DNA from: a virus | Direction: 5' to 3' (one strand) | Length of the DNA: 64,000 bases | Virus record (IMG/VR): IMGVR_UViG_3300045988_168611 | Coordinates: 32,001 to 96,000 of that record | Part shown: piece by piece, positions 1 to 60,231 of the stretch | Layout of the letters: each line of letters starts with the position of its first letter | Numbering within the stretch: position 1 is the first letter of the stretch | Position numbers and translations under genes: made by a program | Notes under the pieces: generated by a model | Told to the model about the DNA's origin: nothing | Seen by the model: only the letters and a program-made list of their open reading frames with translations | The model's database searches: none

Positions 1-926
1 TCGATTACGTCGGTATTCGTTCTATCGAAAAGCTCGACGCGAAAGAGAGCATGACCTGTATCTATGTCGACAACGATGAGCACCTGTATCAGGCTGGTGA
101 TTTCATCGTGACGCACAACACGGAGGTCACGAAGCAACTAGCGAAGATTCTTTTCGGTGATGATCAGCGGCACCTCATCCGGTTCGATATGACCGAATGG
201 GGTCGTGACGACAGTGTGGATCTGTTCCGCGAAGAGTTGTCGCGTCAGGTGTGGGCAACCAGTCACTGCGTGCTGCTCTTTGACGAGATCGAGAAGGCGT
301 CCCCGCTTGTCGTGCGTCTGCTGCTCCAGGTGCTCGATGATGGTCGACTCTCTGACAAAGATGGTCGACAGGTGTCGTTCTTGAACACCTACATCGTGTT
401 GACGACGAATGCTGGTTCGGAGATCTATCGCACCATTGGCGAGTACAACGCCGATGATCACGGTAGTGAGGCCAGCATGCGTGAGTATGAGAAGGTCATC
501 GAAGAGTCCATTAAGAGCACGGATGGCGGTAAGTTCCCGCCTGAGCTCCTGGGACGTATCGATGCGATCGTGCCGTTCCAGCCGTTGTCGCGGCCTACGT
601 TGCGCAAGATCATGATGAAGAAGCTGAGTGCTCTCAAGGCTGATGTGAAGCGTAAGCACGGTATCGATCTGACGATCGATAAGCGTGTTGTCGACTTCCT
701 GGTGGAAGATGAGTCGCGTAGTGATTCTGATGCAGGTGGTGCGCGTGACATGGTGCGTCGCATGCAGCGATACCTGTCGACGGAAGTTGCAGCGTTCATC
801 AACGAACACCCCGAGGAACGTGTGATCGCAGCCAAGATTGACGGCACGCTACGCAGCGAAGATGTGAATATTTTGAAGTCTGATGCTCGTGTGGTTGTCT
901 TGCCGTACGACAAGCCACAGGCTTAG
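1..926 (+). CDS. Clp/Hsp100-type AAA+ ATPase, D2-like C-terminal module; 5' end runs off the window
   Basis: The frame is open from nt 3 to TAG at 924-926. Hsp100 D2 hallmarks are present: Walker B LLFDEIEKA, LLLQVLDDGRLSDKDGRQVSF, sensor-1 IVLTTNAGS and PPELLGRIDAIVPF. The position aligned to the P-loop reads HNTEVTKQ instead of GxxGxGKT. Confidence 0.75.
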   Translation, partial: DYVGIRSIEKLDAKESMTCIYVDNDEHLYQAGDFIVTHNTEVTKQLAKILFGDDQRHLIRFDMTEWGRDDSVDLFREELSRQVWATSHCVLLFDEIEKASPLVVRLLLQVLDDGRLSDKDGRQVSFLNTYIVLTTNAGSEIYRTIGEYNADDHGSEASMREYEKVIEESIKSTDGGKFPPELLGRIDAIVPFQPLSRPTLRKIMMKKLSALKADVKRKHGIDLTIDKRVVDFLVEDESRSDSDAGGARDMVRRMQRYLSTEVAAFINEHPEERVIAAKIDGTLRSEDVNILKSDARVVVLPYDKPQA

Positions 927-1082
927 TCATATCGAATCTGCTCGTATGCGAGCACATTTGGCACAAAGTGTGATACCCTCGTATACGAGTGCAAACACAG
1001 TGTGCTTGCCGGTACCTGCACACATTCCCAATGATGCAGGTACCGGCTCACATACAACCGAATCGATCGAAAGGATTTGTCT

Positions 1083-3356
1083 ATGCTGTTTGGTAAGAAG
1101 GACGACACCAAGGTCGTCGACGAGCAGGTTGCTTCTGCCCCTGTTCTTGATAAGAAGGCTCAGAAGGCTGAGGCCAAGAAGGCCAAGGACTCTCTGGCGC
1201 TTGTCATCGATGAGACGGAGCCCGGTGCGGCTCTTGATCTCATCCGTAACAACGAGCGTTGGGCACTCCCCAATGGGGCTGGTGTCATCCTGTCTCTCCC
1301 CGTTGATGCACCCATCGAAGAAGGCGGTATCGGTGGCCTGGGCAAGGTCTCGTCCAAGGGGGACGAGAACAAAGGCTCGATTCTCCAGCGAATCGCTGAC
1401 GATAAGATTCAGGTCCTGATGACCCAGGATATGCTTCGTCACAACATTTTGGGCATTATCCCCACAGAGCAGTCTCTGAGCCCCGAAGGCATGGGTGAGT
1501 ACACCCTCTTCGACAAGGCTATTTTCATGCTCACGTCTGTTGACACGCGCGATGGGGCTCTCGTTGTGAACCCGATTCACTATGACGAACTGGCCGGTGT
1601 TCTCGACGTGCCTACTGGGGATGCCGATACGGTTACCCTGGCTCAGGCTCAGGCTATCTCTTCTGGGGCTGTGTCTCTGGCTTCTCTGATCCCGTCGCTG
1701 TGGCGTCGTCTGGGTGGCGAGGTTGACACTGAGTCGGTTGATTCGGAGTCCGAGGATCTCGTTGAGGATATTCCCGCGCCGCCATCGACAGACCATGCAG
1801 ATGAGTCTCTGGAAAATGTCGACAATCTGCCGGATTTCGACCCCGATGAGGTTCCAGACGAGCCTCTGGAAGACGAGCTTCCGTTCGATGAGGGCTCGTA
1901 TGACGACGATGATTCTGACATTGAAGATCCGTTCAAGGATCTCGATGTTGCATCGGATGTTGACACCGAGTCTGAGACTGATTCGTTTGGGGATGTTCCC
2001 GAGGTCGCAGAGAACCCCATCCCTGCCCCTGTCGTCGACAACCGTGTCTTCGATCGTGAGGCGGTGCGCAACACGATGGCGCGCAGGTTCCTCGATGAGG
2101 ATCTGGGCTTCACTGTCGATATGACGCCCTTCGAGGCCCTGTTTGGTCATGAAGAGGACGAAGCAAGCCGTTTCTCGCTGGATCATCTCAGCGATGAGAA
2201 CTGGCTCGATGGTCAGATCAAGCTGCTGTCTCAGCAGGCGAATGATGCACTGGCCCAGCAGCGTCGTCGTGACATCAGTGAGCTGCGCGATCTTTTCTTC
2301 TCGCTCGTGTCCAACACGGGCGATGAGATTGCTGCCCAGATGAGCACCGGACCTGGTGCTGACAACGTGTGGGCTCAGACGTTGGCTGAGGCTGATGCGA
2401 ACGCCGAGAAGTCTCGTGAGAGCCTTGTGGACATCGTGGGTGCACAGCGCGCCGCCATCATCGCCAAGTACGAGAAGGATAAGGAAGCGGATGCGCAGGC
2501 TAAAGCCGTGGAGGCGAAGTCTCTCTACGACGTGCGGCACAAGCCCAGTCTCGATCGAGAACTCGATGAGATTGAACCGAATCTCCGTGCAACCATCGAC
2601 GAGGATTACACTCTTCGTCGTCGCCAGATTCTCGATGCGCGCAAGCAGTCTGCGCAGGCTTCTTTCGACGCGGCTCTTACTCGCGTGATGGATCACCTGA
2701 TTCAGAAGCGCTCTGAGCAGGTTGCCCGTGAAGCGGAGCTCATGGAGCAGTTCCGTGACGATATGGGTCAGTTCTTGGATGAGAATCGCAAGGAAGACAT
2801 CGCTCGTGCCGAGGCTCTGCGAGAGCAGTTGTCTCGTGAGAATATCGTCGAGCAGAAGACTGTTGAATTTGCTGCTCGTGAGAAGGAGCTGCATGAGCAG
2901 ATCGCGCGTGAGCGCGAAGAGGCCGAGAAGCGTGCTCTGGCTGCTCAGGAGGAAACCAATAAGACTCTGGCGCGTATGCGTGAAGAGTGGGCTGTTCAGT
3001 TGGCTCAGGCCAAGGCTGAGGTCGAGCGTGCGAATGCGCGCACGGAAGAGGAAGCCGCTCGTGTGAATGTGGTGCGTGAGGAAATCTCGCGTCAGTATGA
3101 GAGCCAGATTGCTTTCCTGGAGAACGATCAGAAGACGCTGATGGCGCAGATGGACCGTGAGAGCCTTGTCGCCAAGCGCGCCAATCGTCTCTACATCGCC
3201 TTGGCGGTGCTGGTCGCTTTCGCGTTCCTCGCACTGGGTGTCATCGCTGGCATTCTGATTCACACTGCGTTCGGTGATGCACATACCGCAGCTGCGGCGA
3301 TCGCTGATGTCTCGGCACAGGTGAGCACCAATAGCGCAGCATCAATCGGTGTGTAA
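1083..3356 (+). CDS. Hypothetical acidic coiled-coil protein with C-terminal membrane anchor
   Basis: ATG at 1083 lies 7 nt after AAGGA (the track ORF begins at TTG 1077). The protein has a long D/E-rich disordered block (DSESEDLVEDI...DDDDSDIEDPF), about 350 aa of E/R/A/Q heptad-like sequence, and a terminal hydrophobic helix LYIALAVLVAFAFLALGVIAGILIH. A terminator follows. Confidence 0.7.
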   Translation: MLFGKKDDTKVVDEQVASAPVLDKKAQKAEAKKAKDSLALVIDETEPGAALDLIRNNERWALPNGAGVILSLPVDAPIEEGGIGGLGKVSSKGDENKGSILQRIADDKIQVLMTQDMLRHNILGIIPTEQSLSPEGMGEYTLFDKAIFMLTSVDTRDGALVVNPIHYDELAGVLDVPTGDADTVTLAQAQAISSGAVSLASLIPSLWRRLGGEVDTESVDSESEDLVEDIPAPPSTDHADESLENVDNLPDFDPDEVPDEPLEDELPFDEGSYDDDDSDIEDPFKDLDVASDVDTESETDSFGDVPEVAENPIPAPVVDNRVFDREAVRNTMARRFLDEDLGFTVDMTPFEALFGHEEDEASRFSLDHLSDENWLDGQIKLLSQQANDALAQQRRRDISELRDLFFSLVSNTGDEIAAQMSTGPGADNVWAQTLAEADANAEKSRESLVDIVGAQRAAIIAKYEKDKEADAQAKAVEAKSLYDVRHKPSLDRELDEIEPNLRATIDEDYTLRRRQILDARKQSAQASFDAALTRVMDHLIQKRSEQVAREAELMEQFRDDMGQFLDENRKEDIARAEALREQLSRENIVEQKTVEFAAREKELHEQIAREREEAEKRALAAQEETNKTLARMREEWAVQLAQAKAEVERANARTEEEAARVNVVREEISRQYESQIAFLENDQKTLMAQMDRESLVAKRANRLYIALAVLVAFAFLALGVIAGILIHTAFGDAHTAAAAIADVSAQVSTNSAASIGV

Positions 3357-3383
3357 TGCACGATGGTGTGATCACATAGAACA

Positions 3384-3424
3384 AGAGGTGCGGTGAGGGT
3401 TATCCTTGCCGCACCTCTTTTCTG
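3384..3424 (+). terminator. Rho-independent terminator
   Basis: AGAGGTGCGG (3384-3393) pairs with CCGCACCTCT (3409-3418) and is followed by TTTTCTGT. Confidence 0.7.
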
Positions 3425-3513: not shown

Positions 3514-6500
3514 ATGGCTTTCGGACGAAAGAAATCCGGTGGAGCAGCGCCCCGTGAACACGGTAGCCAAGCGTGGAATCAACTCGGTAAGCAGGATGAG
3601 CTTGACTCACTGGCTTACCAGGATGTTCATGGTGACCAGCAGCTAGAACGTAGTGACATCGAGGCAAAGATCTCTCCGGTGTCGCGCGAAGTCGCATCGG
3701 CTGTTGCCGGTGTGCTCGTCTTCATCCTCGTGTGGGCATTGTTCTCGTTTGGCACGATGGGTGTGACCATGGGCCGTGACGCCCTGTGGCGTTCGTCTGT
3801 TCCGAGCTACGCAGTACAGAACAAGGCTCTGACGAAGGAGCTGGGCAAGCCTGTGTGGAGCGAAGGGTGTTTCTCCCCAGCTCTGGAAACAGGTGAGATC
3901 GATACGTCCGATGAGACGTGCTATGAGGATGCTGAGGATGTTCCTGAGCCACAGTGGCACGTGGATGCCGTCGCAGCAGAAAAGGCTGATCGAGATGCTG
4001 AGTTGGCTCAGCGTCCGAACAGTGCGATCGGTTGGATGCTGTCGTTCGATTGGCTGAAGTTCGTCATGTCGTCGATTGCTGGTCTTGTTGTGTGGGGCTT
4101 GCTGCGTATGCGTTTGCTGCGCAACCTCAAGGCGCAGAATCTCATGCGCGATACCACTGACATCAACCAATACAAAAATGACCAGCACGTAGCACTCCCC
4201 GAAGAAGTGCGTGAGCGTTTCGATGTGGTGCCTGATGTGGGTGCGCACACGGGCGTGAGTGCAACGACGCTGATCTCTCACTCGATGGTTTCGAACAAGG
4301 GCATCGAGAAGGTTGCGTTTGCACAGCGAGCTGAGAAGGACATTCTCGATGAGGATGGCGATGTGGCTCTGTTCGAGGGAGAAGCTCTCACGGACGACAA
4401 TGGCGATGTTGTGACCAAGATGGTTCCGATGTTTGACGAAGAGTTCGGCACAGCCCTGTGGAACGCATCAGGACTGCCGGATAACAAGCAACTGCGTCGC
4501 CGTCTCGATCCTCGTAACGTGCCGTACAACCCAGGCAATGCCAACCGAGATAAGCTCAAGGGTTTCAATACCCTGGCTGATCTGGTGAACGGTGAGTGGG
4601 AACTTCCAACGTATGAGCCACAGCGTCCGGCTGGCGTCTACTACGTGGATACAGCTCCTGCGAACACCATGATTCTGGCTATGACTCGTGCCGGTAAGGG
4701 TCAGACGTACATTGAGCCAATGCTCGATATTTGGATGCGTCAGAAGCGTCCAGACAACATGATCATCAATGATCCTAAGGGTGAGCTCTTGGTGAAGAAC
4801 TATGTCCGCGCTACCATGCGCGGATTCCAGGTTGTGCAGTTCAACCTCATCAATGCCATGAAGACTGACATCTACAACCCTCTCGGAATGGCGGCTGAGG
4901 CTGCTCGTGAGGGTGACCAAACCAAGTGTGCTCTGTATGTCGAGAACATCGCAGATGTCTTCTTCCCTGTGGACGGCGCAGAAGATCCCGTGTGGCCGAA
5001 CGCTGCGAACAACGCGTTCAAGCGTGCAGCATATGGTCTCATTGATTACTACCTGGAAGAAGAGCACCAGCTGCGTCAGTACGCGATGCGCCACGGTATG
5101 GATCAGAAGGTTCTGGAACAGAAGCTCGATGCCATGTGGGGCAAGGTGACGCTCTACAACTGCTACCAGCTGTTCGTGCAGCTCACGAGTAAGAAGCGTA
5201 AGTCTCCGATGACTCAGGTGAACGAGCGCATCAAGAGCGGCTACTACGATCAGCAGTCGTCCGATCCTGATGAAGTCGACGCTCTGATTGAGCACGACAA
5301 GATGCAGGCTGAGCGCATTGAGTTCCTGTGGGAAGGTAAGCCGGAGTCTGACCTGCTCACCCTGTTCTTCAACGCCACTGAGGCTTTGCCTCAGTCGACG
5401 ATGCGTACGTTGATCGCTAACGCGAACAACGCGCTGCGTGCAATGGCTGGAGCCGAGAAGATGCTCGCATCTGTGTACGGTATTGCTATTACGGCAATGT
5501 CATTCTTCACGGATCCGACGATCTCTACTTTGACCTCTGGTACGCCGTCGCAGAACACCGACCTTGGGGGTCTGTCGTTCCCTCGTCGTTTCGGTGTGCG
5601 TTTTGCTCAGAACTTCACCAAGCGTGATGGTCTTATTGGCGCTCAGGCGAAGTGGGATGCATTTGATGATCCTGAGTTGAAGCACAACCTCGGTAAGGAT
5701 TTCGAGCACGAGGATACTGTGGTTCGAGAAGGATGGGCCCGGTACTATTTCGACGGTAAGTTCCCACATGACGTTGCCTACCTGCGACTGCGTTTGTTCA
5801 ACACCCATACGGGTGTTCTCCTGAAGACGTTCTACTTCCAGTTCACGAAGGGCTACCAGCTCTCGCTGAATGGTCGTAAGTTCGTCAAGGATCCGATCAC
5901 GGGTCAGAAGATCGTCCGTAATGGTGTTCTTGTGGAGATGGTGAAGGGTGAGAACGGTGTTCTCGTTCCTGGTCATCTGCGTTATCCGGCAACCCGTCTG
6001 TTGGATAAGGCTGGCAGTCTCAAGACTGTGCGAGAGAATGTTCCTGCGATCATCTTGTCGTCGGTTCGTTACTCGGAGCAACCAAAGGCTGTGTTCCTCG
6101 TGACGCCGCCTCACTTAATGAAGTACGCGAAGCTCGTGCTGATTCTTGTGAAGCAGTTGGTGGATCTGAATTTCGACAAGTCGTATATGACGAAGGCAAA
6201 CCAGAAGCCGCTCTACAAGACTCGTTTCATGTTGGACGAGCTCGGCAACTTGCAGTCTGAGGGCCACGGTATCTCTGGTTTTGAGACCATGCTCTCCATT
6301 GGTCTGGGTCAGGAGCAGCAATTTACGCTGATTCTTCAGACGTTGCAGCAGGCCAGAGACGTGTATGGCGACAGTGTGGATAAGATCATCCAGGGTAACG
6401 TGGCGAACATTGTGTTCCTGAAGTCGACGGATGACACGATGATCGAAACTTTGGCCAAGATGTCTGGTACACGCCACCGCGCTGTGCGAGATTCGAAGAC

Positions 6501-7560
6501 GGTGACTCAGGATACTGAGCGTCTCATCGAAGGTTTGAACGTTGAGGGCAAGGTGTCGTACACGATCAGTGCGAAGGAGGAAAGTGTCATCGGGTACAAC
6601 GATTTGGCGTTCTTGCCGGAGCGTAACTCGATTATCTTCTCGGCAGGCATCTCGCCAATCTGGAACCGTAATGCGGAGATTCTTCCGATGTCGTGGCGCT
6701 TGTTCAGCAACACCATCAAACACCCAGGTCACGAGTATTCGCTACAAACTATTCCGACGCTCTCGTCGGCACTAGAGTTTGACGTGCGTCTCAACCAGCC
6801 TGACTTCATGAAGATGCTCGATAAGCGTATCGAGCAGGCTGCAAATGCAGCTGAGGCGATGGAGTTGTACCAGGAGGCATACGATCTGGATGATTATGGC
6901 ATCTCGATTCTGGATCCCGATGTGTACTCGGCTGAGGTTATGGACCTCATCGCCTCGATCGAGGAAGAGCGTAAGGGCCACGACATGGAGAACGAAGAGT
7001 ATGACATGGACAGTGACGAGGCTCTGCGTGCTCAGTTGGGCTCTGGTTACGACATGTTCAACGAGGATGACGAGATTAACGAAGATGTCCGAGAGGATCT
7101 TGCTGCTCGTCAGGAGATGTTGGCCGATCGAGCGAAGATGCGCTACGCGGAAGGTCAGATTAGCCGTGAGCATCTGATGAGTGAGAGTGGACAGGTGTTG
7201 CACCATCTCGATGGTGACATCATTGCTGCGTATCGTGAAGCGAAGCACCCAATGGCGTCTGATGCACGGTTCTTCAGAACCGATGCGAATGGTTCGCTGT
7301 GCTCGTTGGATGGACAGATGTACATCAGTCAGGGTGTGTCGAGTGATGAGCTGCGTACTCTCCAAGCTGCATCGTCCGATGAGACGAGCGGTGTGTATGC
7401 AGACGATGAGTCGATCTCTGAGATCGCGGATCTGGGCTCGTGGCGAGTTCATGATGCGTTCTATAGGTTCTTGCACGGCCTGGAGTCGTGGGAGGATCTC
7501 GGCGGAGGCGCTTTCGATCGCGCTATTGCGCGAGTGTTCGAACGTCGAGAGAACGAGTGA
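3514..7560 (+). CDS. Type IV secretion coupling protein (VirD4/TraG family) with N-terminal TM segments and long acidic C-terminal extension
   Basis: ATG at 3514 follows GAAAGGTGG. Two hydrophobic helices lie near the N-terminus. The VirD4-type P-loop context is MILAMTRAGKGQTYIEPMLDIW...INDPKGELL. The Walker B / TraG motif is RFMLDELGNLQ...FTLILQTLQQARDVYG...NIVFLKSTD. Confidence 0.85.
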   Translation: MAFGRKKSGGAAPREHGSQAWNQLGKQDELDSLAYQDVHGDQQLERSDIEAKISPVSREVASAVAGVLVFILVWALFSFGTMGVTMGRDALWRSSVPSYAVQNKALTKELGKPVWSEGCFSPALETGEIDTSDETCYEDAEDVPEPQWHVDAVAAEKADRDAELAQRPNSAIGWMLSFDWLKFVMSSIAGLVVWGLLRMRLLRNLKAQNLMRDTTDINQYKNDQHVALPEEVRERFDVVPDVGAHTGVSATTLISHSMVSNKGIEKVAFAQRAEKDILDEDGDVALFEGEALTDDNGDVVTKMVPMFDEEFGTALWNASGLPDNKQLRRRLDPRNVPYNPGNANRDKLKGFNTLADLVNGEWELPTYEPQRPAGVYYVDTAPANTMILAMTRAGKGQTYIEPMLDIWMRQKRPDNMIINDPKGELLVKNYVRATMRGFQVVQFNLINAMKTDIYNPLGMAAEAAREGDQTKCALYVENIADVFFPVDGAEDPVWPNAANNAFKRAAYGLIDYYLEEEHQLRQYAMRHGMDQKVLEQKLDAMWGKVTLYNCYQLFVQLTSKKRKSPMTQVNERIKSGYYDQQSSDPDEVDALIEHDKMQAERIEFLWEGKPESDLLTLFFNATEALPQSTMRTLIANANNALRAMAGAEKMLASVYGIAITAMSFFTDPTISTLTSGTPSQNTDLGGLSFPRRFGVRFAQNFTKRDGLIGAQAKWDAFDDPELKHNLGKDFEHEDTVVREGWARYYFDGKFPHDVAYLRLRLFNTHTGVLLKTFYFQFTKGYQLSLNGRKFVKDPITGQKIVRNGVLVEMVKGENGVLVPGHLRYPATRLLDKAGSLKTVRENVPAIILSSVRYSEQPKAVFLVTPPHLMKYAKLVLILVKQLVDLNFDKSYMTKANQKPLYKTRFMLDELGNLQSEGHGISGFETMLSIGLGQEQQFTLILQTLQQARDVYGDSVDKIIQGNVANIVFLKSTDDTMIETLAKMSGTRHRAVRDSKTVTQDTERLIEGLNVEGKVSYTISAKEESVIGYNDLAFLPERNSIIFSAGISPIWNRNAEILPMSWRLFSNTIKHPGHEYSLQTIPTLSSALEFDVRLNQPDFMKMLDKRIEQAANAAEAMELYQEAYDLDDYGISILDPDVYSAEVMDLIASIEEERKGHDMENEEYDMDSDEALRAQLGSGYDMFNEDDEINEDVREDLAARQEMLADRAKMRYAEGQISREHLMSESGQVLHHLDGDIIAAYREAKHPMASDARFFRTDANGSLCSLDGQMYISQGVSSDELRTLQAASSDETSGVYADDESISEIADLGSWRVHDAFYRFLHGLESWEDLGGGAFDRAIARVFERRENE

Positions 7561-7585
7561 TTCTCGTGGTGTGAGAGATGCATGA

Positions 7586-7628
7586 GAACCGGGTGGTAGT
7601 CCAATAGACTGCCACCCGGTTCTTTGTT
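7586..7628. terminator. Bidirectional terminator between convergent genes
   Basis: AGAACCGGGTGG (7586-7597) pairs with CCACCCGGTTCT (7612-7623) and is followed by TTGTTG. Confidence 0.65.
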
Positions 7629-12600: not shown

Positions 12601-15058
12601 CTTCCGGGAGAATCCGGGTCTGGATGTCGTCATGGCACCGTTCAGCGCTGTGTCTCGTTTCAACGGTGGTTCTGCCCGTGAGGCAATGCAGGAGACTGCG
12701 CCGCTTCGTTTGCCCAACGGTACGACCGTTGAGGCCGGTATGGGTAAGGTGTCGTTCATCGGTACCCATATGACGGTGGATGCAAAGACAGCCGCATACG
12801 ATGAAGCTGCGATCCGGGCTGGCCAGGGCCGTAAGGCGTCGTCTCAGCTTGCGTGGGCGTTGCAGTCCCAGGGCTGCGATAAGGTGCTGGAGCAGATGTA
12901 CGGTGGCAACCTACAAGCTCTTGCACAGCTGCGTGAGATGGCTCTGGTGTGCGGTTTGGACATCGAGCCTGATGGCACCTTGCGTGATGGTCATGATGAT
13001 CTTGCTGTCGGTGGGCAGCGCCGTCTCATTGAGATGGGCGATGTTCCGCTCACTGAACGTGGATCGTTCGACGTGCGTCGCGTTCGTAACGATTTCGCTT
13101 CGTTGATTGGTGACGCTGGCGGTGATATGGAGATTCCGTTCCCGCTGACGATGCCAACGGGTGCTCGTACGCCTCATGCGACTGATACGACGTGGCGTGT
13201 GCCGGTGCTGAGCTCGCATCTGCGATCGGGCCAGGATCTTGACGACGGTACGTCGACGGTCCATGACTACACGTATCGCTACCTTGCGATCCGTGAATGG
13301 TCGCTGCGCTACAAGCATGCTGCTGATCGAGCTGCGTCTGGTGAGCTGACTGGCAAGGAGCTTTCTGATGCTCGTCGAACGATGGCTGAGGCGATGCATC
13401 GCGCTCAGACTGCGTACGATGGCATTGCACAGGACATCATGCGTCGCCGGTTCACCGGCAAGCGCAATGTCTTCAAGGAAGGTCTCATGGCTTCGCGTCT
13501 GCCGCACTCGGCCACTGCTGTGTGGACGGGTGATCCTCGTCTGGACATCGACCAGGTCGGTGTTGGCCCGGAGCTGGCGAAGAAACTGCATCTGCGTGAC
13601 GGTGATTACGCGCTTGTGTGGCGTGACCCCGTTCTTCGTGATGCGGGTGTGCGTTACATGCGCGTGAGCCTTGACGATCGTCTCACTGGTGTGAGTGTCA
13701 ATCCCAATATGGTCAAGTGCTTCGACGGCGATTTCGATGGTGACTCTGTTGCCGTCGTGAAGCTGGGTGATGGTCCGGCACATGAGCAAGCGCTGGAGCG
13801 CCTGACTGTCGAGGCTAACCTCATTGATCTGGGTCAGAGCATGGATGACGAGGGTCGTTACCCTCTTGCGATGCACAACGCGCTCGATGTGAAGGTGTCG
13901 CAGCACTACGATTCTCGTCATGCGGATGCGATGGATGAGGTCCACCAGCGTGCGAACGACGCCTACTATGATCTCGTGGAAGGGGAGGCTAATCGCGAGC
14001 AGTTCCTGGACGAGGGTCGTGATGTCGTGGATGCAGCGTCCTACATGTACCGTGAGGCGCTCAAGCATCAGTACGGTGAGGCTGTGTTGTCGTTTGGTTC
14101 CGTTCAGGAGCACATGAAGTCTGTGGAGGCTGCGTGTATTGAGACGGGAGCTAAAGGCTCGCCTAAGAAGATGCTGGATTATGCTCGATACATCGGGTAT
14201 GACCCGGAGAACCAGGTGGATCTGGTGACCACGCGCGTGACGCGCGAGGAACAGCTGGGTACCATGTATGCAACGGCTGTGAAGTCGTTTGGTACCGGTG
14301 TTGCCGGTACGTTCTCTCAGCGCGGCGTGCGAGCTCTTCGTAACGACGAGCTCAAGGCTGTGTTGGAGCTGACGTACCCGGTGACGCAGAGTATTCTGCA
14401 AGCCAAGCACGATCCGGTGGATGCTCGTCACCGGTATGAGCTGCTGATGGGTCCGGCTCGAAGCTTGTGGCGTGGTCAGGCGATTGCACAGGATGGCAAC
14501 GGTGTGTGGAACACTGTGACGGACGACGATCGTAAGCCGGTTCAGGCCACCAAGGATCAGTGGGTTGCCATGTTCTCGCAGTTCTACGGCGATGCAGGTC
14601 TGGGTGTGGCTGTGAACAGCGACAACATCACGAAGGTTGCAAATGCGCTCAGCGATAGCAACGGAGTGATGGTGAACCTGGAAGATGAGAAGGTCATTGA
14701 GCAGCTTGCTTCTCCGATGGATCGTCTGGCTTACGGCGGTGACTTCACCACGATGCAAGCGTTGGCTGAGGCTCACGCTAACCTGTTCGAGGGTCAGTGG
14801 AACGCCAAGTTTGCGCCAGCTCGTGTGCGTGAGGTGATGGAGGCCGATGTGGAGACGCAGGCCGAGGCACCGGTGATCGCCATGGAAGACACAGTGGCTC
14901 GTGTGGATCGTGATGAGAAGATCGGTCGACGTAAGTCGACATCGTGGGCTGTTCCGGTGCGTTCGCATACGGGTACCAGTGCAGCTGAGCGTTACGGTCT
15001 GACGGCACAGGTGGACAATGAGGCAGATGTGTCTGTCGACGACGGTTTCGAGTTGTGA
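9608..15058 (+). CDS. Single-polypeptide RNA polymerase with fused beta-like and beta-prime-like double-psi beta-barrel modules
   Basis: ATG at 9608 lies 9 nt after GGAAGGAG. Beta motifs: MEDSIVVSADFARQYRV, GDKISDMHGNKGVISLIV (nt 12478-12530), LDVVMAPFSAVSRFNGG. Beta-prime motifs: RRRFTGKRNVF, GDPRLDIDQVGVGPELAKKL, VWRDPVLRDAGVRYMRV, catalytic CFDGDFDGDSVAVV (DFDGD at nt 13730-13744), GAKGSPKKM and the bridge-helix-like ATAVKSFGTGVAGTFSQRG. Confidence 0.85.
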   Translation: MQTRNAGLRRYMYEHMIARTINRTSELTKTPILVSQGRRLRDLMEERLNEQGRSFNDGDLPVADALNAIQSVMQENVPGYKDLFQPADTSSKGYKALYEEFRNMVGLNGSAGAAGPRLPISPYDPRWGSRRTVKQAGTSILYVLDGDIAAYADGKPSNVEKVTTSELTLYRLTDEGKAKEAGRALSLDDVSGLTELMGRMSTAEYNEVRQWVLDGARNPETGRYNARQFMSTEALARSRAVLDMLAEEGIPYTIEKDLRPGQIRARLTGTNMTVRLTDTRDKEQWVGRVYDNGATLYFSTTARRDNKQVAYVPTVDEVCDLVRVALGRPVERKDGKGLVGRVGERQTSKGKTVQESYLSTGTLTSAYKDMPGMNSEQIVIRRQMKERSASSRFFADTPEGREQASAFISDAVHSARHNVAEQLDVDGLIQQFRDHEDAAREGAYIPMLSGDPDLAAVGRAYWDVLRGAETTLLKPEATRAEYAEATGLLDDMDQESDLSGVHDMLVGSVAYTGTPEERVRAHLRDLLDTQIGIDEPIDSDDFVFDPVRVARYMASEHGQWRNNDDLVAAMRSAGVPQEKIVGESFYSNTFRDRLITFDESTALPMDVVEDTFTQSMLQVVSDTLESCAVTPGSIRVDANGVVEWTGSIMRSQTGKEEPVSGTIGQIFARGENGEIITRFNSGNDLMIVPGFDARVVAQKPGENKSLEERTRLIGYEQQMSDAIRYRVQADVLSGRSRVGEPASLNSVYRRLSDTRHRADHYERALEEGMDRKILDAILATEARRVRYPNALRDGSTIDADFRASRAREQGIGGDPANDTTMDPWVLTGGRNMSLLSEEADGYFDPIMTSGGVNQGVTRYLVSGAQVNPDGSIVRSDKNDRAPLMLTEQAQLMSYDPFDRQQMTTSNLMNASSVTKPVGTAFMTAGGWTMEDSIVVSADFARQYRVRGTDGQMRDLIVGDKISDMHGNKGVISLIVDRDADLSPDEIEELHGSTDMMTLFRENPGLDVVMAPFSAVSRFNGGSAREAMQETAPLRLPNGTTVEAGMGKVSFIGTHMTVDAKTAAYDEAAIRAGQGRKASSQLAWALQSQGCDKVLEQMYGGNLQALAQLREMALVCGLDIEPDGTLRDGHDDLAVGGQRRLIEMGDVPLTERGSFDVRRVRNDFASLIGDAGGDMEIPFPLTMPTGARTPHATDTTWRVPVLSSHLRSGQDLDDGTSTVHDYTYRYLAIREWSLRYKHAADRAASGELTGKELSDARRTMAEAMHRAQTAYDGIAQDIMRRRFTGKRNVFKEGLMASRLPHSATAVWTGDPRLDIDQVGVGPELAKKLHLRDGDYALVWRDPVLRDAGVRYMRVSLDDRLTGVSVNPNMVKCFDGDFDGDSVAVVKLGDGPAHEQALERLTVEANLIDLGQSMDDEGRYPLAMHNALDVKVSQHYDSRHADAMDEVHQRANDAYYDLVEGEANREQFLDEGRDVVDAASYMYREALKHQYGEAVLSFGSVQEHMKSVEAACIETGAKGSPKKMLDYARYIGYDPENQVDLVTTRVTREEQLGTMYATAVKSFGTGVAGTFSQRGVRALRNDELKAVLELTYPVTQSILQAKHDPVDARHRYELLMGPARSLWRGQAIAQDGNGVWNTVTDDDRKPVQATKDQWVAMFSQFYGDAGLGVAVNSDNITKVANALSDSNGVMVNLEDEKVIEQLASPMDRLAYGGDFTTMQALAEAHANLFEGQWNAKFAPARVREVMEADVETQAEAPVIAMEDTVARVDRDEKIGRRKSTSWAVPVRSHTGTSAAERYGLTAQVDNEADVSVDDGFEL

Positions 15059-15089
15059 TCATCATGTGATCATGCGCTGAAGCTATGAA

Positions 15090-15130
15090 GAAGCAGGTCT
15101 CGCCTTTAGGTGGGGCCTGCTTCTTTGTAT
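15090..15130 (+). terminator. Rho-independent terminator/attenuator after the RNAP gene
   Basis: GAAGCAGGTCTC pairs with GGGGCCTGCTTC (two G-U pairs that work only on the + strand) and is followed by TTTGTATT. Confidence 0.7.
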
Positions 15131-15213
15131 TAGTGGAGGCTGGCTTGTGTCGTAATCGTTGCAATAGTGCGATATACTGGTATACGAGTCGAATGCAACT
15201 AAACGAAAGGAAG

Positions 15214-16566
15214 ATGGTCATGTCGACGATATGGTACGAGGGTCCAGCTGATGGCAACATTCAGAGGCGTTACGGTCTTGATTCTCATGAGTGGGTGGGA
15301 TCGCTGTCCGATAGGGTGGCGACAATCATTGACAAGGATGATCCTTGGAAGGAAACGCATGTGAATGCGCTTCTGCGTGATGGTGTGGAATTCTTTGCGC
15401 AGAAGTCTCAGGATCATCCAGAATTGGGTGATGATGACCAGATGCGTGATGCTGTCTCGTATGTGGCACACAGCGGTGTTCTCATCGATGATGAGACTCT
15501 GTTGGCTCTTATAGAAGCGGATGACAAGTATGTTGTTCCGTTTGGTGCAGAGTCGCTTATGTATGAATACAACAAGATGCATCAGCCTGATTACGGACGG
15601 CTGTATCAGCGTGAGCGTGATGCTGCACAGTTGCCGTACGCGGAGGCAACAGATGAAGAGATCAAGCAGTACTATGGCCTTGATCCACATGAGTGGAAGG
15701 GGAGCCTTGCCGATAAGGTGATGGCGATCGTCAACAAGAATACGCCTGACAAGGAAACGCATGTGAATGCGCTCTTGCGCGATGGCGCACGTCTGTTCGC
15801 TCAGAATATGGAAGCTCAACCGGTATCGGGTGTGAGTGACGATGATTTGCGTTACGCGGTGGAATCTGGTGGCGATGAGCTGCGTGCTGCCATCTCTGAC
15901 GCATCATGGGCTGGTGTCCTCATCAACGATGAGGCGATGGAAGCTATCAAGCATGTGGAGAAGGAGTACATCACCGAGTTTGGTGGAGATTCTCTCACAC
16001 GTGCGTACGATCAGATGCGCAAGTTGAACGATGCGCGCGCTCATTACCGCGAGGCTGCGAAGGAGATGCGCACGGCTGCCCCTGTTGCTCCGGCTCCGAC
16101 AACCCCGAGTTTTGATCGGTTCGCTCCGCCTCAGGGTGCGCGTGTGACGACGGTTCCGCCGCCTGTGCGTACTGTTGGGTCTGCTCGATCTGCCCGCTCT
16201 GTACAGCCTGTGCAGTCTGTGCCGCCTATTCCTCAGCCCCCGAAGACGCCGGGATCTCAGGTTCGTACAGGTGGTCCTGTGCGAGTGGGTAATGTCGCCA
16301 AAGATTGGCTCGCGTCGATGGGTCGTGACGAGAAGGGTCATCCTCTTGCGTCTGCGCCTGCACCGTCTGCACAGTCCCCTGCATCGTCTGGGCCTAAGAT
16401 TCCGGCTCAGCGATCGGGTTCGATTCAGGCTGCGCTCCCTGGCAGTGGTGTCACCGTGGGTCGATCGACGCCGCGTGTGCCACCTACTGCTGGTACAGCT
16501 CGTCGTATGAGTGCTCCTGAGCCCCAGGTGCAGACCCCAAGCGTTGATGACGGCTTCGAGCTGTAA
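15214..16566 (+). CDS. Hypothetical protein: tandem duplicated about 110-aa domain, P/A/S-rich linker and VDDGFEL tail
   Basis: ATG at 15214 (or 15220) follows GAAAGGAAG; the track start at 15085 lies inside the terminator. Repeat 1 is nt 15271-15579 (YGLDSHEWVGSLSDRV...KETHVNALLRDG...). Repeat 2 is nt 15673-16017 (YGLDPHEWKGSLADKV...KETHVNALLRDG...). An about 170-aa proline-rich tract follows, ending PSVDDGFEL. Confidence 0.75.
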   Translation: MVMSTIWYEGPADGNIQRRYGLDSHEWVGSLSDRVATIIDKDDPWKETHVNALLRDGVEFFAQKSQDHPELGDDDQMRDAVSYVAHSGVLIDDETLLALIEADDKYVVPFGAESLMYEYNKMHQPDYGRLYQRERDAAQLPYAEATDEEIKQYYGLDPHEWKGSLADKVMAIVNKNTPDKETHVNALLRDGARLFAQNMEAQPVSGVSDDDLRYAVESGGDELRAAISDASWAGVLINDEAMEAIKHVEKEYITEFGGDSLTRAYDQMRKLNDARAHYREAAKEMRTAAPVAPAPTTPSFDRFAPPQGARVTTVPPPVRTVGSARSARSVQPVQSVPPIPQPPKTPGSQVRTGGPVRVGNVAKDWLASMGRDEKGHPLASAPAPSAQSPASSGPKIPAQRSGSIQAALPGSGVTVGRSTPRVPPTAGTARRMSAPEPQVQTPSVDDGFEL

Positions 16567-16608
16567 CGCGCCTTCGAAGAGATTGAAAGCAATAGAAAGG
16601 AGGAAAAG

Positions 16609-18282
16609 ATGGTTCGCCCACCTCGTCAACTTCCAGCACCTCGGTACGGGGGTGACGTTGGTCCGCAGAAGGATCAAGACGAAACTGCGACGATGGTTGT
16701 TACCAAGGAGCAGATTTTCGATGAGAAGCCTGAACCTGCCGAGCCTACCCAGGCAGTAGAGCCAAAGCCTGCGCTTGATTGGGCGCAACAGCTGAGGCTT
16801 GATATGCGCTACCACGCTGATGGGTATCTTCATGCTCTCAGCCAGATCGATATGAAGTCGATGAAGCGAAAGGCTGACATCGCTTCTCGCATGAACGATC
16901 TTCAGGGTAAGCACAAAGCGTATGCCTCGATGATGGTTCTCAGCGCTCTCATTCCACTGAAAGACGGTGTGTCGATGTCGGCTGTGGCCGAATCTGTTGG
17001 CATGGGCGTCACGATGTGGATGCTGTCGCCTAACTTCCGTCAACAGGTGAAGTCGTTTGCTCGCGATGCTCGTATGGCTGTCGAAGACATGGCAGAGGCT
17101 CGTCGACGCAGTCAGTCGAAACAGTTGCATGATCAGGCCGATCGACATCGGCAGAAGCATGGTGGTGAACTACCGCCATCTCTGAAGCGTCGTCTGGAGC
17201 GTATTGAAGCCAAGGAGCGTAATGGTCGCATCCCGTTTAATGAAGCGAGTGCGGCGTTGACACATCTCGGTTTGAGCGAAGCGATGTTCAACCAGATGCG
17301 TCAACCTGGTGTGGATCCTGCTGGGGTCCAAGAGGGCTATGCACACCTGATGGAGCGTTTCTGGGACGATGTTCAGAAGGACGGCCTGGACCCTGAACGA
17401 GTGAACACCGTCAGCCGCATGCTTATGGGTCAACGGATGCGTTATGAGCCTCATTGGGCGAATGCGTTCGTTGAGACGGCTCATGGTGAAGTCGACATGG
17501 ACATGGTGGAGCAAGTGGATGCTCAGACGGGTGAACCGCGTCGAACGTGGACCGGTATCTGGTCCACGCGCATGGGCGAGCCCATCGTGGGCGGTTCTTT
17601 CACTGTCCGTCCTCCGTACAACGAGATGCAGCATGAGTTGTCTCTGAGTACGTGCATGGCTCGTGAGATGGAGCGTGCAGCGCTGAATGGCAACATTGCG
17701 GATTTGAACGAATCGCTGCTTGCCTATGGTTCTGCCTGGTCTGTTCGGGACAAGAACCTGGATGTGCACAGCGTTCCTGGTGCGATGGGTGAGAAGATTC
17801 GTCGAGCTCGTCGTGGTCTCGATGCCATGGAATTCGATGGTTTCGATCGAGATGCGCAGCGAGACATCTATGCGACATCGTTCGTTCACGCCATGGACAT
17901 GGTGGCGAAGGCTCACCCGGACATCGAACGTCACTGGGCGCAGCAGTATGGGTCTCAGTGGCGATCAGAAATGCGAGACTTCGCAGCGACGCCTGAAGAG
18001 ACCTACAACCGGTGGCAACGGGGGGAGTTTTATTCTGATGCACGTGAATCTCCAGGGCATGACAACGCCCATGCGGATCCCCACACGGAGCGTATGAGGG
18101 AAGACTCAAGGCGCAGGCGCAGCGCGTACAACCGCGCGCGTGACAACCAGGAGTACAACGCTCATGAGACATCAGCGTTTAGCGCTGATACTGATTTCGA
18201 ACTCAACGATGTCGACGACGGGTTTGACATGGGTGGGTACGATCGACCTAATGACAATGATGGCTTTGAGCCGTCTCTATGA
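16609..18282 (+). CDS. Hypothetical protein with acidic DDGF-repeat C-terminus
   Basis: RGS GAAAGGAGGAAAAG precedes the ATG. I recognised no family. The C-terminus is DTDFELNDVDDGFDMGGYDRPNDNDGFEPSL. Confidence 0.7.
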   Translation: MVRPPRQLPAPRYGGDVGPQKDQDETATMVVTKEQIFDEKPEPAEPTQAVEPKPALDWAQQLRLDMRYHADGYLHALSQIDMKSMKRKADIASRMNDLQGKHKAYASMMVLSALIPLKDGVSMSAVAESVGMGVTMWMLSPNFRQQVKSFARDARMAVEDMAEARRRSQSKQLHDQADRHRQKHGGELPPSLKRRLERIEAKERNGRIPFNEASAALTHLGLSEAMFNQMRQPGVDPAGVQEGYAHLMERFWDDVQKDGLDPERVNTVSRMLMGQRMRYEPHWANAFVETAHGEVDMDMVEQVDAQTGEPRRTWTGIWSTRMGEPIVGGSFTVRPPYNEMQHELSLSTCMAREMERAALNGNIADLNESLLAYGSAWSVRDKNLDVHSVPGAMGEKIRRARRGLDAMEFDGFDRDAQRDIYATSFVHAMDMVAKAHPDIERHWAQQYGSQWRSEMRDFAATPEETYNRWQRGEFYSDARESPGHDNAHADPHTERMREDSRRRRSAYNRARDNQEYNAHETSAFSADTDFELNDVDDGFDMGGYDRPNDNDGFEPSL

Positions 18283-18299
18283 AAGGAGTTGAGTGATCA

Positions 18300-18626
18300 A
18301 TGTTGGGTTTTCCAAAGGATGACGATACGATCGCCGGTCTGTTCGGTGTCAGCGAAGAGGATCGTCACGCATGGGCTAAGGAGCACCAGATGAGGTTGGA
18401 GCGTCAGCAGGCGCAAAAGCCGGGTCTGGCGAAGAAGGCAACGATGGCCGCCTACGAAATCGCTGCTGCGGGTATTACCTCGCAGATGCGTGCGGCGTAC
18501 ATCGAAGAGGCTCGTGGCACGATGGCGAAAGAGACGACTACGACGACTCGTAGTCAGTCTCGAAACATCGATCCTGAATTCGAAGAGATCCGTCGCGAGA
18601 GTGGTGGCTACGAATTCGGTGGCTGA
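18300..18626 (+). CDS. Small hypothetical protein (108 aa)
   Basis: It starts 18 nt after the previous stop, preceded by AAAGGAG. It ends ...RRESGGYEFGG, and a strong terminator follows. Confidence 0.55.
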   Translation: MLGFPKDDDTIAGLFGVSEEDRHAWAKEHQMRLERQQAQKPGLAKKATMAAYEIAAAGITSQMRAAYIEEARGTMAKETTTTTRSQSRNIDPEFEEIRRESGGYEFGG

Positions 18627-18686: not shown

Positions 18687-18798
18687 TGTATCGGTCGGTT
18701 AGGCATCGGTGTGTTCCGATATGTTAGACTGATATACGAACATAATCAGAAAGCGGCTATGTGCCGTGACACGTAGGGAAAGGATGAGAGGTTGGATC

Positions 18799-19140
18799 AT
18801 GGCGCTCTACAAGAAGGACGCGGAGAAGAATGTGAGGGTGGACGATGACACTCGTATGACGAAGACGAGGTTGATACAAGCTGTATCGAAGCGGACGGGT
18901 ATCGATGCGGCGACGGTGCGAGCTGTGTATGCGGCAATCGTTGATGAGATCATCACGACTACCCGTTCTGGCCGATCGGTCATGCTGACGGGGTTCGGTC
19001 GTTTCTACCGGCTGCATAAGGCCGGTCATACTGTGCAGTTCACCAAGTCGGGTACAGGCGTAGTACCTGGCTACGACGTGCTGAAGTTTTCTGCTTCGTC
19101 GACATTGAACCGATCTTTGACAAATGAGTCGAGTGAGTAG
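18799..19140 (+). CDS. HU/IHF-family DNA-binding protein
   Basis: MTKTRLIQAVSKRTGIDAATVRAVYAAIVDEIITTTRSGRSVMLTGFGRFYRLHKAG fits the HU pattern (elI..ia...gls...a...v.a....i...l..g..v.l.GFG.F). The start at 18799 is preferred (GAGAGG, 7-nt spacing); 18766 and 18856 are also possible. Confidence 0.8.
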   Translation: MALYKKDAEKNVRVDDDTRMTKTRLIQAVSKRTGIDAATVRAVYAAIVDEIITTTRSGRSVMLTGFGRFYRLHKAGHTVQFTKSGTGVVPGYDVLKFSASSTLNRSLTNESSE

Positions 19141-33542: not shown

Positions 33543-34571
33543 TCAGATGGCCCAGGGGGAATCGACAGACGCCTCAGGAGCAACCGGCTGAGGCTGAGCC
33601 TCGGGGGTCACGCCGAAGGCAGACGCAGGATCGGCCTGAACGGGAGCCTGCTGCTGCGCGACAGCGTTGAGAATCTGTGCGGCCTGCGGATTAGGCGCAG
33701 CCTGTGCAGCAGCCGGAACCACAGGAACAGCGGGCGCAACGGGCGCGACAGCCTGGGTCACCGGGGCGGGCATTGCCAGCCCCGAGGTGGCGTCGACCAC
33801 CGTGTTCTGGGGCGCAGCCTGCTGAACAATGGGAGCAGCAGCAACAACCGGAACAGCAGGAGAGACAGGCTGGGCAACAGCCGGAGCCACAGGAGCGGCG
33901 ACGGGTGCGGCAACCTGCTGGGCAGGCTCGTTCACGACAACGCCTTCCTGGGCGACGATCGGGCCGCTCAGCGTGATGCCGAGAGCCGCGAGTGCGTTGT
34001 TGTTAACAGCAGAATTGCCACCAGTGAACCATTCGGGCTCGCCATCGAAGATGATGGTCTGAAGGCCGATGCCGTTGTTGGCGTTCATACCAGACGAGTA
34101 GACGTTGAGAACAACGGTGACGAGCTGATCTCGTGCTGGCTCCGTTGGCATCGACATGGCCGACGCAGGGATCTCATCGTCCGTAATCTGCACAGCCTTG
34201 CCGTCGACAACCTTGAGAAGAACCGGCAAGCGGTTCCCCTTGTTGTCAATGCTCCAACGATTGCCTAGTTCGGGCTTATCGGGAGTCTGGAACAAACGCT
34301 CATAGACGTAGTACTCTTCCAGATCAGGCTGGCCATCGGGACTCTTGAAGACGACCTCAACGTTAGATAGCGAGAGCCGCGTGAGCGGCTTGTTGCGGTC
34401 CAACGGGTAGAACGGTGCACCGGGCTTGCGCTTAGCACGACGGGTCTCGTTGAGCTTGTCGATGTCTTCAGGTCCCATGAGACTGCGCACACGGGCGTAT
34501 TCGATCTTGCCTCGGAGGATGATCGTAGAACCAGGGCGGATCTGCGATGCGGAAATCTGATGCTGAGCCAT
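33543..34571 (-). CDS. Phage-type ssDNA-binding protein (DUF2815 / T7 gp2.5-like) with long A/P/V/Q-rich tail
   Basis: The N-terminal about 190 aa include STIILRGKIEYARV... and LVTVVLNVYSSGMNANNGIGLQTIIFDGEPEW, which fits the family pattern V.iN.Y.....N.GI..gL..vq...dGEP. About 140 aa of low-complexity sequence follow, ending SVDSPWAI. The gene sits within the replication cluster. Confidence 0.5.
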   Translation of the reverse strand: MAQHQISASQIRPGSTIILRGKIEYARVRSLMGPEDIDKLNETRRAKRKPGAPFYPLDRNKPLTRLSLSNVEVVFKSPDGQPDLEEYYVYERLFQTPDKPELGNRWSIDNKGNRLPVLLKVVDGKAVQITDDEIPASAMSMPTEPARDQLVTVVLNVYSSGMNANNGIGLQTIIFDGEPEWFTGGNSAVNNNALAALGITLSGPIVAQEGVVVNEPAQQVAAPVAAPVAPAVAQPVSPAVPVVAAAPIVQQAAPQNTVVDATSGLAMPAPVTQAVAPVAPAVPVVPAAAQAAPNPQAAQILNAVAQQQAPVQADPASAFGVTPEAQPQPVAPEASVDSPWAI

Positions 34572-52880: not shown

Positions 52881-52959
52881 CTGTTGCTCTCTATTGTGTG
52901 TAACTCTTACGTTTTTGCGCGAAGCATCAAAAACGTAAGAGTTAGGTGACGAGCAACAG
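52881..52959. repeat. Long composite palindrome
   Basis: The outer arms are CTGTTGCTC (52881-52889) and GAGCAACAG (52951-52959). The inner perfect 17-bp arms are TAACTCTTACGTTTTTG (52901-52917) and CAAAAACGTAAGAGTTA (52928-52944). Confidence 0.8.
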
Positions 52960-53099
52960 GTGTTTCTTAGGGTCTGAGTGATGAGACCGTGAATCGTATA
53001 TGTTGATGAGGCAGGTGTGATTTTATCTTGTGCCTCCCTCAGCGACATATACGACCAAGGTGGTTTGTAGTCATCGACTTGTGAATCGTAGATTAGGGT

Positions 53100-59832: not shown

Positions 59833-60231
59833 TCAGAGCTCGATGGGATCGTCGCCCCAGTACGTAACGTTCTCGTCGCGTAGAGTCTGGATAGCCTTCT
59901 GGTCGGAGTTAGGCGATGTGGCGACATAGAGCGCGTTGATGAGTTTGCGCAGACGTGCTGATGTCGTCTCGTCGTGATTGAATGCGCCCGGTACAATGAA
60001 GACCTTCGGGGGCTTGTTTCGAGACGGGTCGTAATCAGGACGAAGCCGCACTGTCGCGATGAAGGTTCGGGAGGCGAAAACCCTGTAGTCGATCGCCGTA
60101 GGAGTGAGTCGGGTCATCTGTACGATGGTGAAATCCCCTGCGATCGGAATGATCATGGGTTGGTCGCGCAGCAGCTCCTGCGCTGCTGCGTCGATGTCAG
60201 CGAGGATGGTAGACGACTGTGACTGAGTCAT
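59833..60231 (-). CDS. Hypothetical protein (132 aa)
   Basis: AGAAGGAAC precedes the ATG. The gene lies downstream of conserved element C. Confidence 0.6.
   Translation of the reverse strand: MTQSQSSTILADIDAAAQELLRDQPMIIPIAGDFTIVQMTRLTPTAIDYRVFASRTFIATVRLRPDYDPSRNKPPKVFIVPGAFNHDETTSARLRKLINALYVATSPNSDQKAIQTLRDENVTYWGDDPIEL

Follow-up and report, generated by a model that had tools for sequence, protein, structure and literature searches.

The stretch of DNA analysed here (the window) comprised 64,000 nucleotides of the IMG/VR virus record IMGVR_UViG_3300045988_168611, positions 32,001 to 96,000, and came from a large conjugative element in an uncultured Actinomyces. Four consecutive genes in it, encoding a large RNA polymerase (RNAP) and three proteins termed P2, P3 and P4, ended in related acidic C-terminal tails, which are the subject of this analysis. 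The gene order began with a Clp/Hsp100-like AAA+ ATPase truncated at the window edge and continued with a coiled-coil protein, the type IV coupling protein (T4CP), a DUF4379 gene on the opposite strand, RNAP, P2, P3, P4 and HU (Table 1). The remaining window was occupied by replication and repair genes for a UvrD-like helicase, two more AAA+ proteins, an SNF2 helicase, MgsA, a PolB-like protein, a D5-type primase and RecJ. The RNAP was 96% identical to the RNAP of the metagenome-assembled genome contig L004. The T4CP, read from the ATG at 3514 and not from the GTG at 3505, was identical to a protein on the 118-kb JGI metagenome contig L089, which extended the window's own element leftward; contig L090 was a 96%-identical relative. 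The block of AAA+ ATPase, coiled-coil protein, T4CP, RNAP, P3 and P4 was kept on plasmids of Streptomyces, Rhodococcus and Gordonia and was also present at about 75 actinobacterial genome loci, with the families detected by jackhmmer. HU followed P4 on the Streptomyces plasmid and at most genome loci and was not found after P4 on the Rhodococcus and Gordonia plasmids. The Gordonia plasmid pGKT2 had the entire window backbone in common.

Table 1. Coordinates of the conserved block, its C-terminal tails and one further possible tail bearer, in window positions.
Feature	Position	Strand	Basis or remark
Clp/Hsp100-like two-ring AAA+ ATPase, 3' part (last 291 codons, 51-926)	1..926	+	Pfam AAA_2, ClpB_D2-small; without tail
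Coiled-coil protein, 759 aa, acidic region, C-terminal transmembrane anchor	1077..3356	+	syntenic + strand homologues at loci L001-L003; without tail
T4CP, 1348 aa, N- and C-terminal extensions	3514..7560	+	Pfam T4SS-DNA_transf, TraG-D_C, TrwB_AAD_bind; without tail
Two-barrel fused beta/beta'-like RNAP, 1836 aa	9548..15058	+	Pfam Rpb2_6, Rpb1_2; 120 homologues
RNAP tail SVDDGFEL (..ADVSVDDGFEL)	15032..15055	+	DNA and orthologue tails
Terminator-like hairpin and T-run 3' of the RNAP gene	15085..15121	+	sequence
P2, 450 aa	15214..16566	+	two tandem repeats of about 135 aa, Pro-rich linker, tail
P2 tail SVDDGFEL (..QTPSVDDGFEL)	16540..16563	+	identical to RNAP tail
P3, helical, fold unassigned	16609..18282	+	adjoins RNAP in about 80 elements
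P3 tail region, three motif copies (DTDFEL, DDGFDM, DGFEPSL)	18187..18279	+	sequence
P4, small helical, 108 aa	18300..18626	+	conserved FGxVTPEDRxRW motif
P4 tail ESGGYEFGG	18597..18623	+	family consensus Phi-[DE]-[PG]-[DE]-Phi-[DE]-Phi at the C-terminus (Phi, hydrophobic)
HU-family protein	18766..19140	+	closes the conserved block; without tail, negative control
132-aa protein ending ..YWGDDPIEL	59833..60231	-	far from the transfer block; possible further tail bearer

The RNAP held the beta-type motif DMHGNKGVIS and the beta'-type metal site FDGDFDGD in one chain, which identified it as a two-barrel enzyme. Its cluster comprised 614 member sequences, the family of large plasmids and integrative elements that encodes it was common in human-associated Actinomyces, and no relative of the RNAP was present in the phage collection. 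An earlier note on this DNA had proposed that four consecutive plus-strand genes end in related tails, and the open reading frames (ORFs) confirmed this. The RNAP and P2 shared their last eight residues. In the RNAP these were encoded by tct gtc gac gac ggt ttc gag ttg and in P2 agc gtt gat gac ggc ttc gag ctg. Five of the eight codons thus differed, all synonymously, and the sequence just 5' was unrelated, in agreement with the proposal that the identity is maintained at the protein level. The start of P2 was most likely the ATG at 15214 behind the ribosome-binding site aaggaag, and not position 15085, which would give 493 aa, because the terminator-like hairpin follows the RNAP stop codon. 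Searches of Pfam, NCBIfam and PHROGs with P2 gave no match. P2 was confined to the Actinomyces lineage, and two tandem paralogues were present in L004 (15570-17921, ending NVDDGFEL and SVDDGFEL) and in L039 (15656-18233, ending ADGGFEL and DEASFEL).

The tails were carried on disordered or low-complexity linkers, as had been supposed. In P2 the Pro-rich linker, previously put at about 170 aa, measured 161 aa with 19% Pro. P3 ended in ..DTDFELNDVDDGFDMGGYDRPNDNDGFEPSL, and its residues 521-557 had a predicted local distance difference test score (pLDDT) below 40 in AlphaFold2 (AF2). A profile search with P3 retrieved no PDB match, and its AF2 model (pLDDT 68) gave no significant Foldseek match to the PDB. 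Neither P3 nor P4 had a counterpart in Pfam, NCBIfam or PHROGs. The single-sequence AF2 model of P4 was helical only and of low confidence (pLDDT 59).

In general form the tail is a short linear motif at the C-terminus. It opens with an acidic stretch that contains no basic residues, after which one to three hydrophobic or aromatic residues alternate with E, G or Q in the last three to seven positions. In the window's element it took the form [DG]-[FYMP]-E-[LF]-(G)(G). Six-frame translation of the window gave 394 ORFs of 50 aa or more, among which only the RNAP, P2, P3 and P4 had an acidic-aromatic-x-hydrophobic C-terminus, and a loose definition fitted 2 of the 37 other curated window genes. 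The strict expression [DE][DE]G[FY][ED][LFM] suggested for a scan retrieved the RNAP and P2 and nothing else, and was too narrow for the class. Together with the conservation in orthologues, the scans of window ORFs and curated genes excluded a chance origin of the tails. Several established C-terminal motifs were considered as well. The beta-clamp-binding motif (QLxLF), the FtsZ C-terminal peptide and the GGQ end of Pup were each ruled out by sequence or context, as were sortase and exosortase signals, which need a transmembrane segment after them.

Conservation in homologous operons was assessed with C-terminus-anchored profiles of 182 RNAP, 84 P3 and 63 P4 non-redundant sequences. The tails were kept in the orthologues of all three proteins, in about 180 RNAP, 80 P3 and 57 P4 sequences of Actinobacteria. 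They were conserved position by position within the last 5-10 residues, and the adjoining linkers were variable. The P4 profile was hydrophobic at positions -7 (86%), -3 (94%) and -1 (89%) and acidic at -6 (89%), -4 (76%) and -2 (84%). In the RNAP profile, a linker with 22% basic and 6% acidic residues was followed by about 50% acidic residues at -8 to -6 and by hydrophobic residues at -3 (76%) and -1 (64%). Across the profiles, the final eight positions were 30-90% acidic and 0-9% basic. The T4CP and HU orthologues, which served as controls, lacked such a pattern. The exact VDDGFEL was specific to the Actinomyces lineage, and elsewhere each family had its own variant. RNAP orthologues ended in DDDYGMGY (Streptomyces), DDYQL or DSFQL (Microbacteriaceae), GGPELG (some Arthrobacter), SDGFEYGL or DDQEMEL (Cutibacterium). 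P3 orthologues ended in SEDYQPA, EHEYQA, DVDFELG or DGFEMGG, and P4 orthologues in EIEPDLEL, IDPDFEL, DEGFEF, DNGYEL, GGYEF or YGPDF. RNAP homologues on Firmicutes plasmids (Staphylococcus, Lactococcus) also showed alternating hydrophobic and acidic ends, ..GFELEM and ..VEIEMEV.

Further tails were located to the left of the window. On L089 the pre-relaxase protein ended in ..DLDDPEF, the MobL relaxase in ..DSMDSMELG and a 187-aa protein in ..EIDEPEF. Seven of ten consecutive genes were therefore tagged, and the three without a tail were those for the AAA+ ATPase, the membrane-anchored coiled-coil protein and the T4CP. The relaxase tail D[SD][MIL]ELG was kept in homologues of 76-96% identity, with a changing linker before it. 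On L090, none of the tagged proteins had a transmembrane segment. Seven genes further upstream, one of them for a phage-lysozyme-type hydrolase, all encoded transmembrane segments and lacked the tail; they presumably form the mating pair formation (Mpf) channel. The replication proteins (PolB-like protein, D5 primase, RecJ, MgsA and helicases) ended without a tail. The tails were restricted to the soluble proteins of the block and absent from machine parts and replication genes.

This distribution bears on the docking partners that the earlier note had listed. The T4CP and/or the adjacent Clp-like unfoldase were favoured, since the relaxase, the canonical T4SS substrate, and its two soluble neighbours were tagged and the tagged genes flank the trio of untagged ones. 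The single-stranded DNA-binding (SSB)-like protein and the polymerase, also on that list, were disfavoured. Mimicry of the SSB or T7 gp2.5 type, in which the tails dock their bearers as clients on the SSB-like protein, the polymerase or another replisome hub, has a small chance of being correct. A disordered linker with an acidic aromatic tip does resemble SSB, the end ..SVDSPWAI of the window's SSB-like protein is slightly like VDDGFEL, and the element encodes MgsA and RecJ, both known as SSB-tail clients in E. coli. Against this, the terminal Pro-Phe carboxylate required by the SSB C-terminus was absent, no replication protein bore a transfer-type tail, and the tagged genes clustered at the T4CP, not in the replication block. 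SSB-type tips in related plasmids (DEPPF, EEPPF, VDVPF, NDAPFA) formed a separate class on other proteins. The SSB-like gene of the window (33543-34571, minus strand) encoded 342 aa, in which a P/A/Q/V-rich linker of about 150 aa separated an N-terminal domain from the end ..EASVDSPWAI, and had no Pfam match.

In pGKT2, all 159 annotated coding sequences were translated. The local variant GP[EQ]LG, scanned for as G[PFY][EQS][LMF][GSA]0-2, was present in 6 of 20 transfer-region proteins and in 0 of 139 others (Fisher 2e-6, with a pattern chosen post hoc). The RNAP of this plasmid ended in ..SEGLGA and the relaxase in ..TSPGM. Its tagged proteins had neither a transmembrane segment nor a signal peptide, and one was a LysM peptidoglycan-binding protein, which must exit the cytoplasm. 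The pre-relaxase family was homologous in Actinomyces, Streptomyces, Gordonia and Rhodococcus, with the tails DDPEF, DLEFG..SLGT, GPQLGG and GPQLGG, respectively. A family of 167-190 aa was found at L001 (18778-19290, minus strand), at some 25 further loci of Streptomyces and Arthrobacter and in pGKT2 (122899-123402), with the ends EPDLQFE, ADLEFD and DSPEFGG. Its core appeared RelE/ParE-like by eye and had no match in the Pfam, NCBIfam and PHROGs libraries. Lineage-specific proteins, namely the P2 paralogues and this 170-190-aa family, acquired the tail, as a portable tag predicts. Acidic tails were present on at least seven unrelated proteins of one element and in at least five families across elements.

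A portable, linker-borne terminal peptide on unrelated soluble proteins including the relaxase, encoded on both sides of the T4CP and missing from machine and replication parts, fits a signal for recruitment to, or translocation by, the T4CP module. Judged from sequence, the tail may be a shared C-terminal address tag that recruits soluble DNA-processing proteins to the T4CP/AAA+ module, a reading to which a probability of roughly 0.5 is given. A common receptor is suggested, with the T4CP and the AAA+ ATPase as candidates, either or both of which might bind the tail, and translocation would follow binding. The tagged cargo would comprise the pre-relaxase protein, the MobL relaxase, the 187-aa protein, the RNAP, P2, P3 and P4. 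The T4CP, the adjacent Clp/Hsp100-like AAA+ unfoldase and the membrane-anchored coiled-coil protein would form the motor module. The flexible linker would present the tail, and one of the hexameric ATPases would bind it. Large substrates would then be unfolded and passed C-terminus first into the channel of the type IV secretion system (T4SS), so that the recipient would obtain the relaxase-DNA complex together with pilot proteins including the RNAP. According to Trokter and Waksman (2018), T4SS substrates reportedly must be unfolded.

Entry of the RNAP itself into the recipient is possible, if doubtful. Equally tentative is a wider proposal, in which actinobacterial conjugative elements of a widespread family, and their Firmicutes relatives, would employ an acidic signal with a hydrophobic tip that has not been described before. 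The T4CP and a Clp-like unfoldase dedicated to it would read this signal, and a pilot proteome (relaxase, accessory proteins, the 1800-aa RNAP, P3 and P4) would be exported with the DNA. If this were true, a donor-made polymerase would transcribe or prime the incoming single strand in the recipient, as a conjugative counterpart of the injected RNAP of phage N4. The same distribution data would arise if the tail were a tag for assembly in the donor, docking the relaxosome proteins, the RNAP and P2-P4 on one shared scaffold, be it the T4CP, the AAA+ ring or the coiled-coil protein, with only the relaxase-DNA complex exported and the RNAP acting in the donor, for instance by transcribing or priming at oriT. 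This is unlikely but a serious contender. An RNAP of 1836 aa would be very large for a T4SS substrate, and the Firmicutes-plasmid RNAP kept its tail next to neighbours that showed none, so that an RNAP-specific partner may suffice there. Two points speak against assembly in the donor alone, although neither is decisive. The LysM protein of pGKT2, which bears the tail, must leave the cytoplasm and has no signal peptide, and the AAA+ protein next to the T4CP resembles an unfoldase, as would suit the export of folded proteins.

The AAA+ ATPases also bear on whether the tail is a degron, read by a Clp/Hsp100-like ATPase of the element so that host ClpP degrades the transfer proteins and limits their lifetime. 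The element encoded two Clp-like AAA+ proteins. The second, a two-ring protein of 622 aa (24948-26816, minus strand), carried MGF at the position of the ClpP-docking loop, where its pGKT2 homologue had LGF, and ssrA-type C-terminal tags are classic for Clp. No [ILV]G[FL] ClpP loop was found in the T4CP-adjacent AAA+ ATPase, which lies amid the tagged genes. With two rings and without the docking tripeptide, it looks like an unfoldase and not like a protease partner, which is plausible for large cargo. Known C-terminal Clp degrons are non-polar and not strongly acidic; the tails also have hydrophobic terminal residues, but embedded among acidic ones. Moreover, the tails were confined to the block around the T4CP, and destroying the essential relaxase and at least seven proteins would be less economical than recruiting them. 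A degron is improbable.

Several observations weigh against an address tag for the T4CP/AAA+ module. A strict Phi-x-Phi acidic end fitted 77% of P4 but only 42-53% of RNAP, 1-13% of P3 and 2-27% of relaxase sequences, at a six-frame null rate of 0.2-0.4%. The loose definition covered 63-88% of RNAP, P3 and P4 and 33% of relaxases, and it also fitted 5-14% of control plasmid proteins. The P4 tail and many orthologue tails were related and not identical, which makes the class a loose one. In Streptomyces, the tail was missing from the relaxase (..DLEREQKD) and from most proteins of the transfer region, and R. fascians showed the pGKT2 tail pattern in part only. Permutation of tails between elements gave no sign of co-variation of RNAP, P3 and P4 (p 0.29-0.92), with four independent clusters at 60% identity and hence no power. 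The enrichment patterns were designed after the data had been seen. Apart from the relaxase and the RNAP, the tagged proteins had no detectable family or fold in Pfam, NCBIfam and PHROGs or, for P3, in PDB searches. Finally, the signals of VirB/D4 systems are net positive (Arg-rich) or folded domains (BID, XVIPCD, TSA/TSB), whereas the tail is acidic and devoid of basic residues.

Some of these points would also be expected if acidic C-termini were simply frequent in Actinobacteria, each serving a private purpose or none. The loose definition was met by 14% of the control proteins of pGKT2, the tails differed between families in most lineages and the co-variation test was not significant. An absence of any common function is nevertheless very improbable in view of the identical octapeptide with synonymous changes, the position-specific conservation in hundreds of orthologues next to variable linkers, the six-frame null rate of 0.2-2% and the sharp clustering in the transfer block, seen in two elements independent of each other.

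Other features of the window and its relatives were recorded alongside. The full AAA+ ATPase had 1260 aa with a LAGLIDADG_3 match in L089 (3631-7413) and 887 aa in L090 (13177-15840), and the size gap looks like an intein or homing-endonuclease insertion. The coiled-coil protein had no match in Pfam, NCBIfam or PHROGs. A 785-aa ORF on the minus strand (927-3284) was rejected as a gene; it was an antisense artefact of the real coiled-coil gene and found 'homologues' because the plus-strand gene is conserved. The DUF4379 gene between T4CP and RNAP (7644-9428, minus strand) encoded 594 aa with four treble-clef zinc-finger repeats. It was present only in the Actinomyces lineage, and elsewhere the RNAP gene lay directly 3' of the T4CP gene. 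Perfect long GC-rich hairpins with T-runs followed the coiled-coil (3383-3419), T4CP (7584-7624) and RNAP genes, so the conserved block is punctuated by terminator- or attenuator-like sites and is no plain operon. The GC skew was positive in all 2-kb bins from 1 to 64000, although gene orientation switched from plus to minus at about 19 kb; the skew thus follows something besides transcription direction. A region of about 3.4 kb (51800-55200) held short ORFs only, and no Rfam or tRNA features were found in the whole window. The DDPIEL end of the 132-aa protein matched DDGFEL at five of six positions. This protein had no homologue in the plasmid collection and no match in Pfam, NCBIfam or PHROGs.

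To our knowledge, little is understood of how Gram-positive conjugative T4SSs recognise their substrates, and we know of no C-terminal signal defined for actinobacterial systems. Literature searches retrieved no such signal, no description of the tail and no RNAP linked to conjugative protein transfer. The tail has a realistic chance of being the first substrate signal to be defined for conjugative T4SSs of Actinobacteria. A tag that the relaxase shares with at least six further proteins would offer a testable handle on cargo choice, by which transferred proteins could be predicted from sequence. It would also provide a hypothesis for why large actinobacterial plasmids and integrative and conjugative elements encode their own RNAP beside the T4CP. 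If the RNAP were transferred, incoming DNA could be established independently of recipient transcription, with a bearing on host range and on evading recipient defences.

Among known systems, the E-block of Dot/Icm substrates resembles the tail in that many unrelated substrates carry an acidic block at the C-terminus, as do the tagged proteins here. Nagai et al. (2005) reportedly showed that a hydrophobic residue near -3 matters for RalF. In the Legionella coupling complex, DotM binds acidic, Glu-rich C-termini (PMC5802825). In contrast to Dot/Icm, the element encodes a conjugative T4SS of the Gram-positive, MPF-FATA-like kind. Its tail is shorter, occupies the extreme C-terminus and contains hydrophobic residues in alternation, and DNA-processing proteins and an RNAP are the candidate substrates instead of host effectors. 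No homologues of DotM, DotN or IcmSW were seen, the coiled-coil and tagged proteins having no Pfam match and no dedicated DotM search having been made.

C-terminal signals of VirB/VirD4 systems are exemplified by VirE2, VirF, Beps and relaxases, and the primases Sog and TraC are co-transferred with DNA. The tail shares with these signals its position within the last 20-50 residues and a presumed dependence on the T4CP. SSB, ParB and PsiB of pED208 are likewise co-transferred with DNA by a conjugative T4SS (PMC8406263). In type VII secretion, the extreme C-terminal LxxxMxF of the actinobacterial EsxB is bound by the ATPase3 domain of EccC, a hexameric FtsK-like ATPase (PMC6954902). The P4 consensus, hydrophobic at -7, -3 and -1, and the V-DDG-F-E-L of the window have the same Phi-xxx-Phi-x-Phi spacing, and P4 is small and helical. 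This end was present in 77% of P4 sequences and in the window RNAP and P2, in 3-5% of RNAP and relaxase sequences and in 0% of P3. Unlike EccC, the ATPase encoded here has a single nucleotide-binding domain and matches VirD4/TraG/TrwB models, and the residues between the hydrophobic positions of the tail are acidic. The T4CP gene was surrounded by genes for a MobL relaxase and a T4SS-type lysozyme, a setting other than that of an EccC/EssC receptor, and no WXG100 partner was identified.

The SSB tip (DDDIPF/DEPPF) and the tails of T7 gp2.5 and gp4 share with the present tails a disordered linker, an acidic aromatic tip and the use of one docking site by several proteins. The tails described here end in EL, EF, ELG, EFGG or EPSL without a terminal Pro-Phe, and their bearers have no SSB domain and would be clients rather than SSB. 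In F-like plasmids, an acidic, aromatic-ended C-terminal tail of TraD binds TraM and thereby links relaxosome and T4CP. The Pfam family TraG-D_C is described as 'TraM recognition site'. The arrangement is reversed in the present element, since in F the T4CP carries the tail and a relaxosome protein has the pocket, whereas here the T4CP is untagged and the relaxosome-side proteins bear the tail. The virion RNAP of phage N4 offers a parallel in that the RNAP would, if transferred, enter a new cell with the DNA. The delivery route differs, and the N4 enzyme is T7-like, whereas the RNAP of the window belongs to the two-barrel NCgl1702-like type of mobile elements (PMC7824862). The tail is a member of no defined class, yet it would work like known C-terminal T4SS signals.

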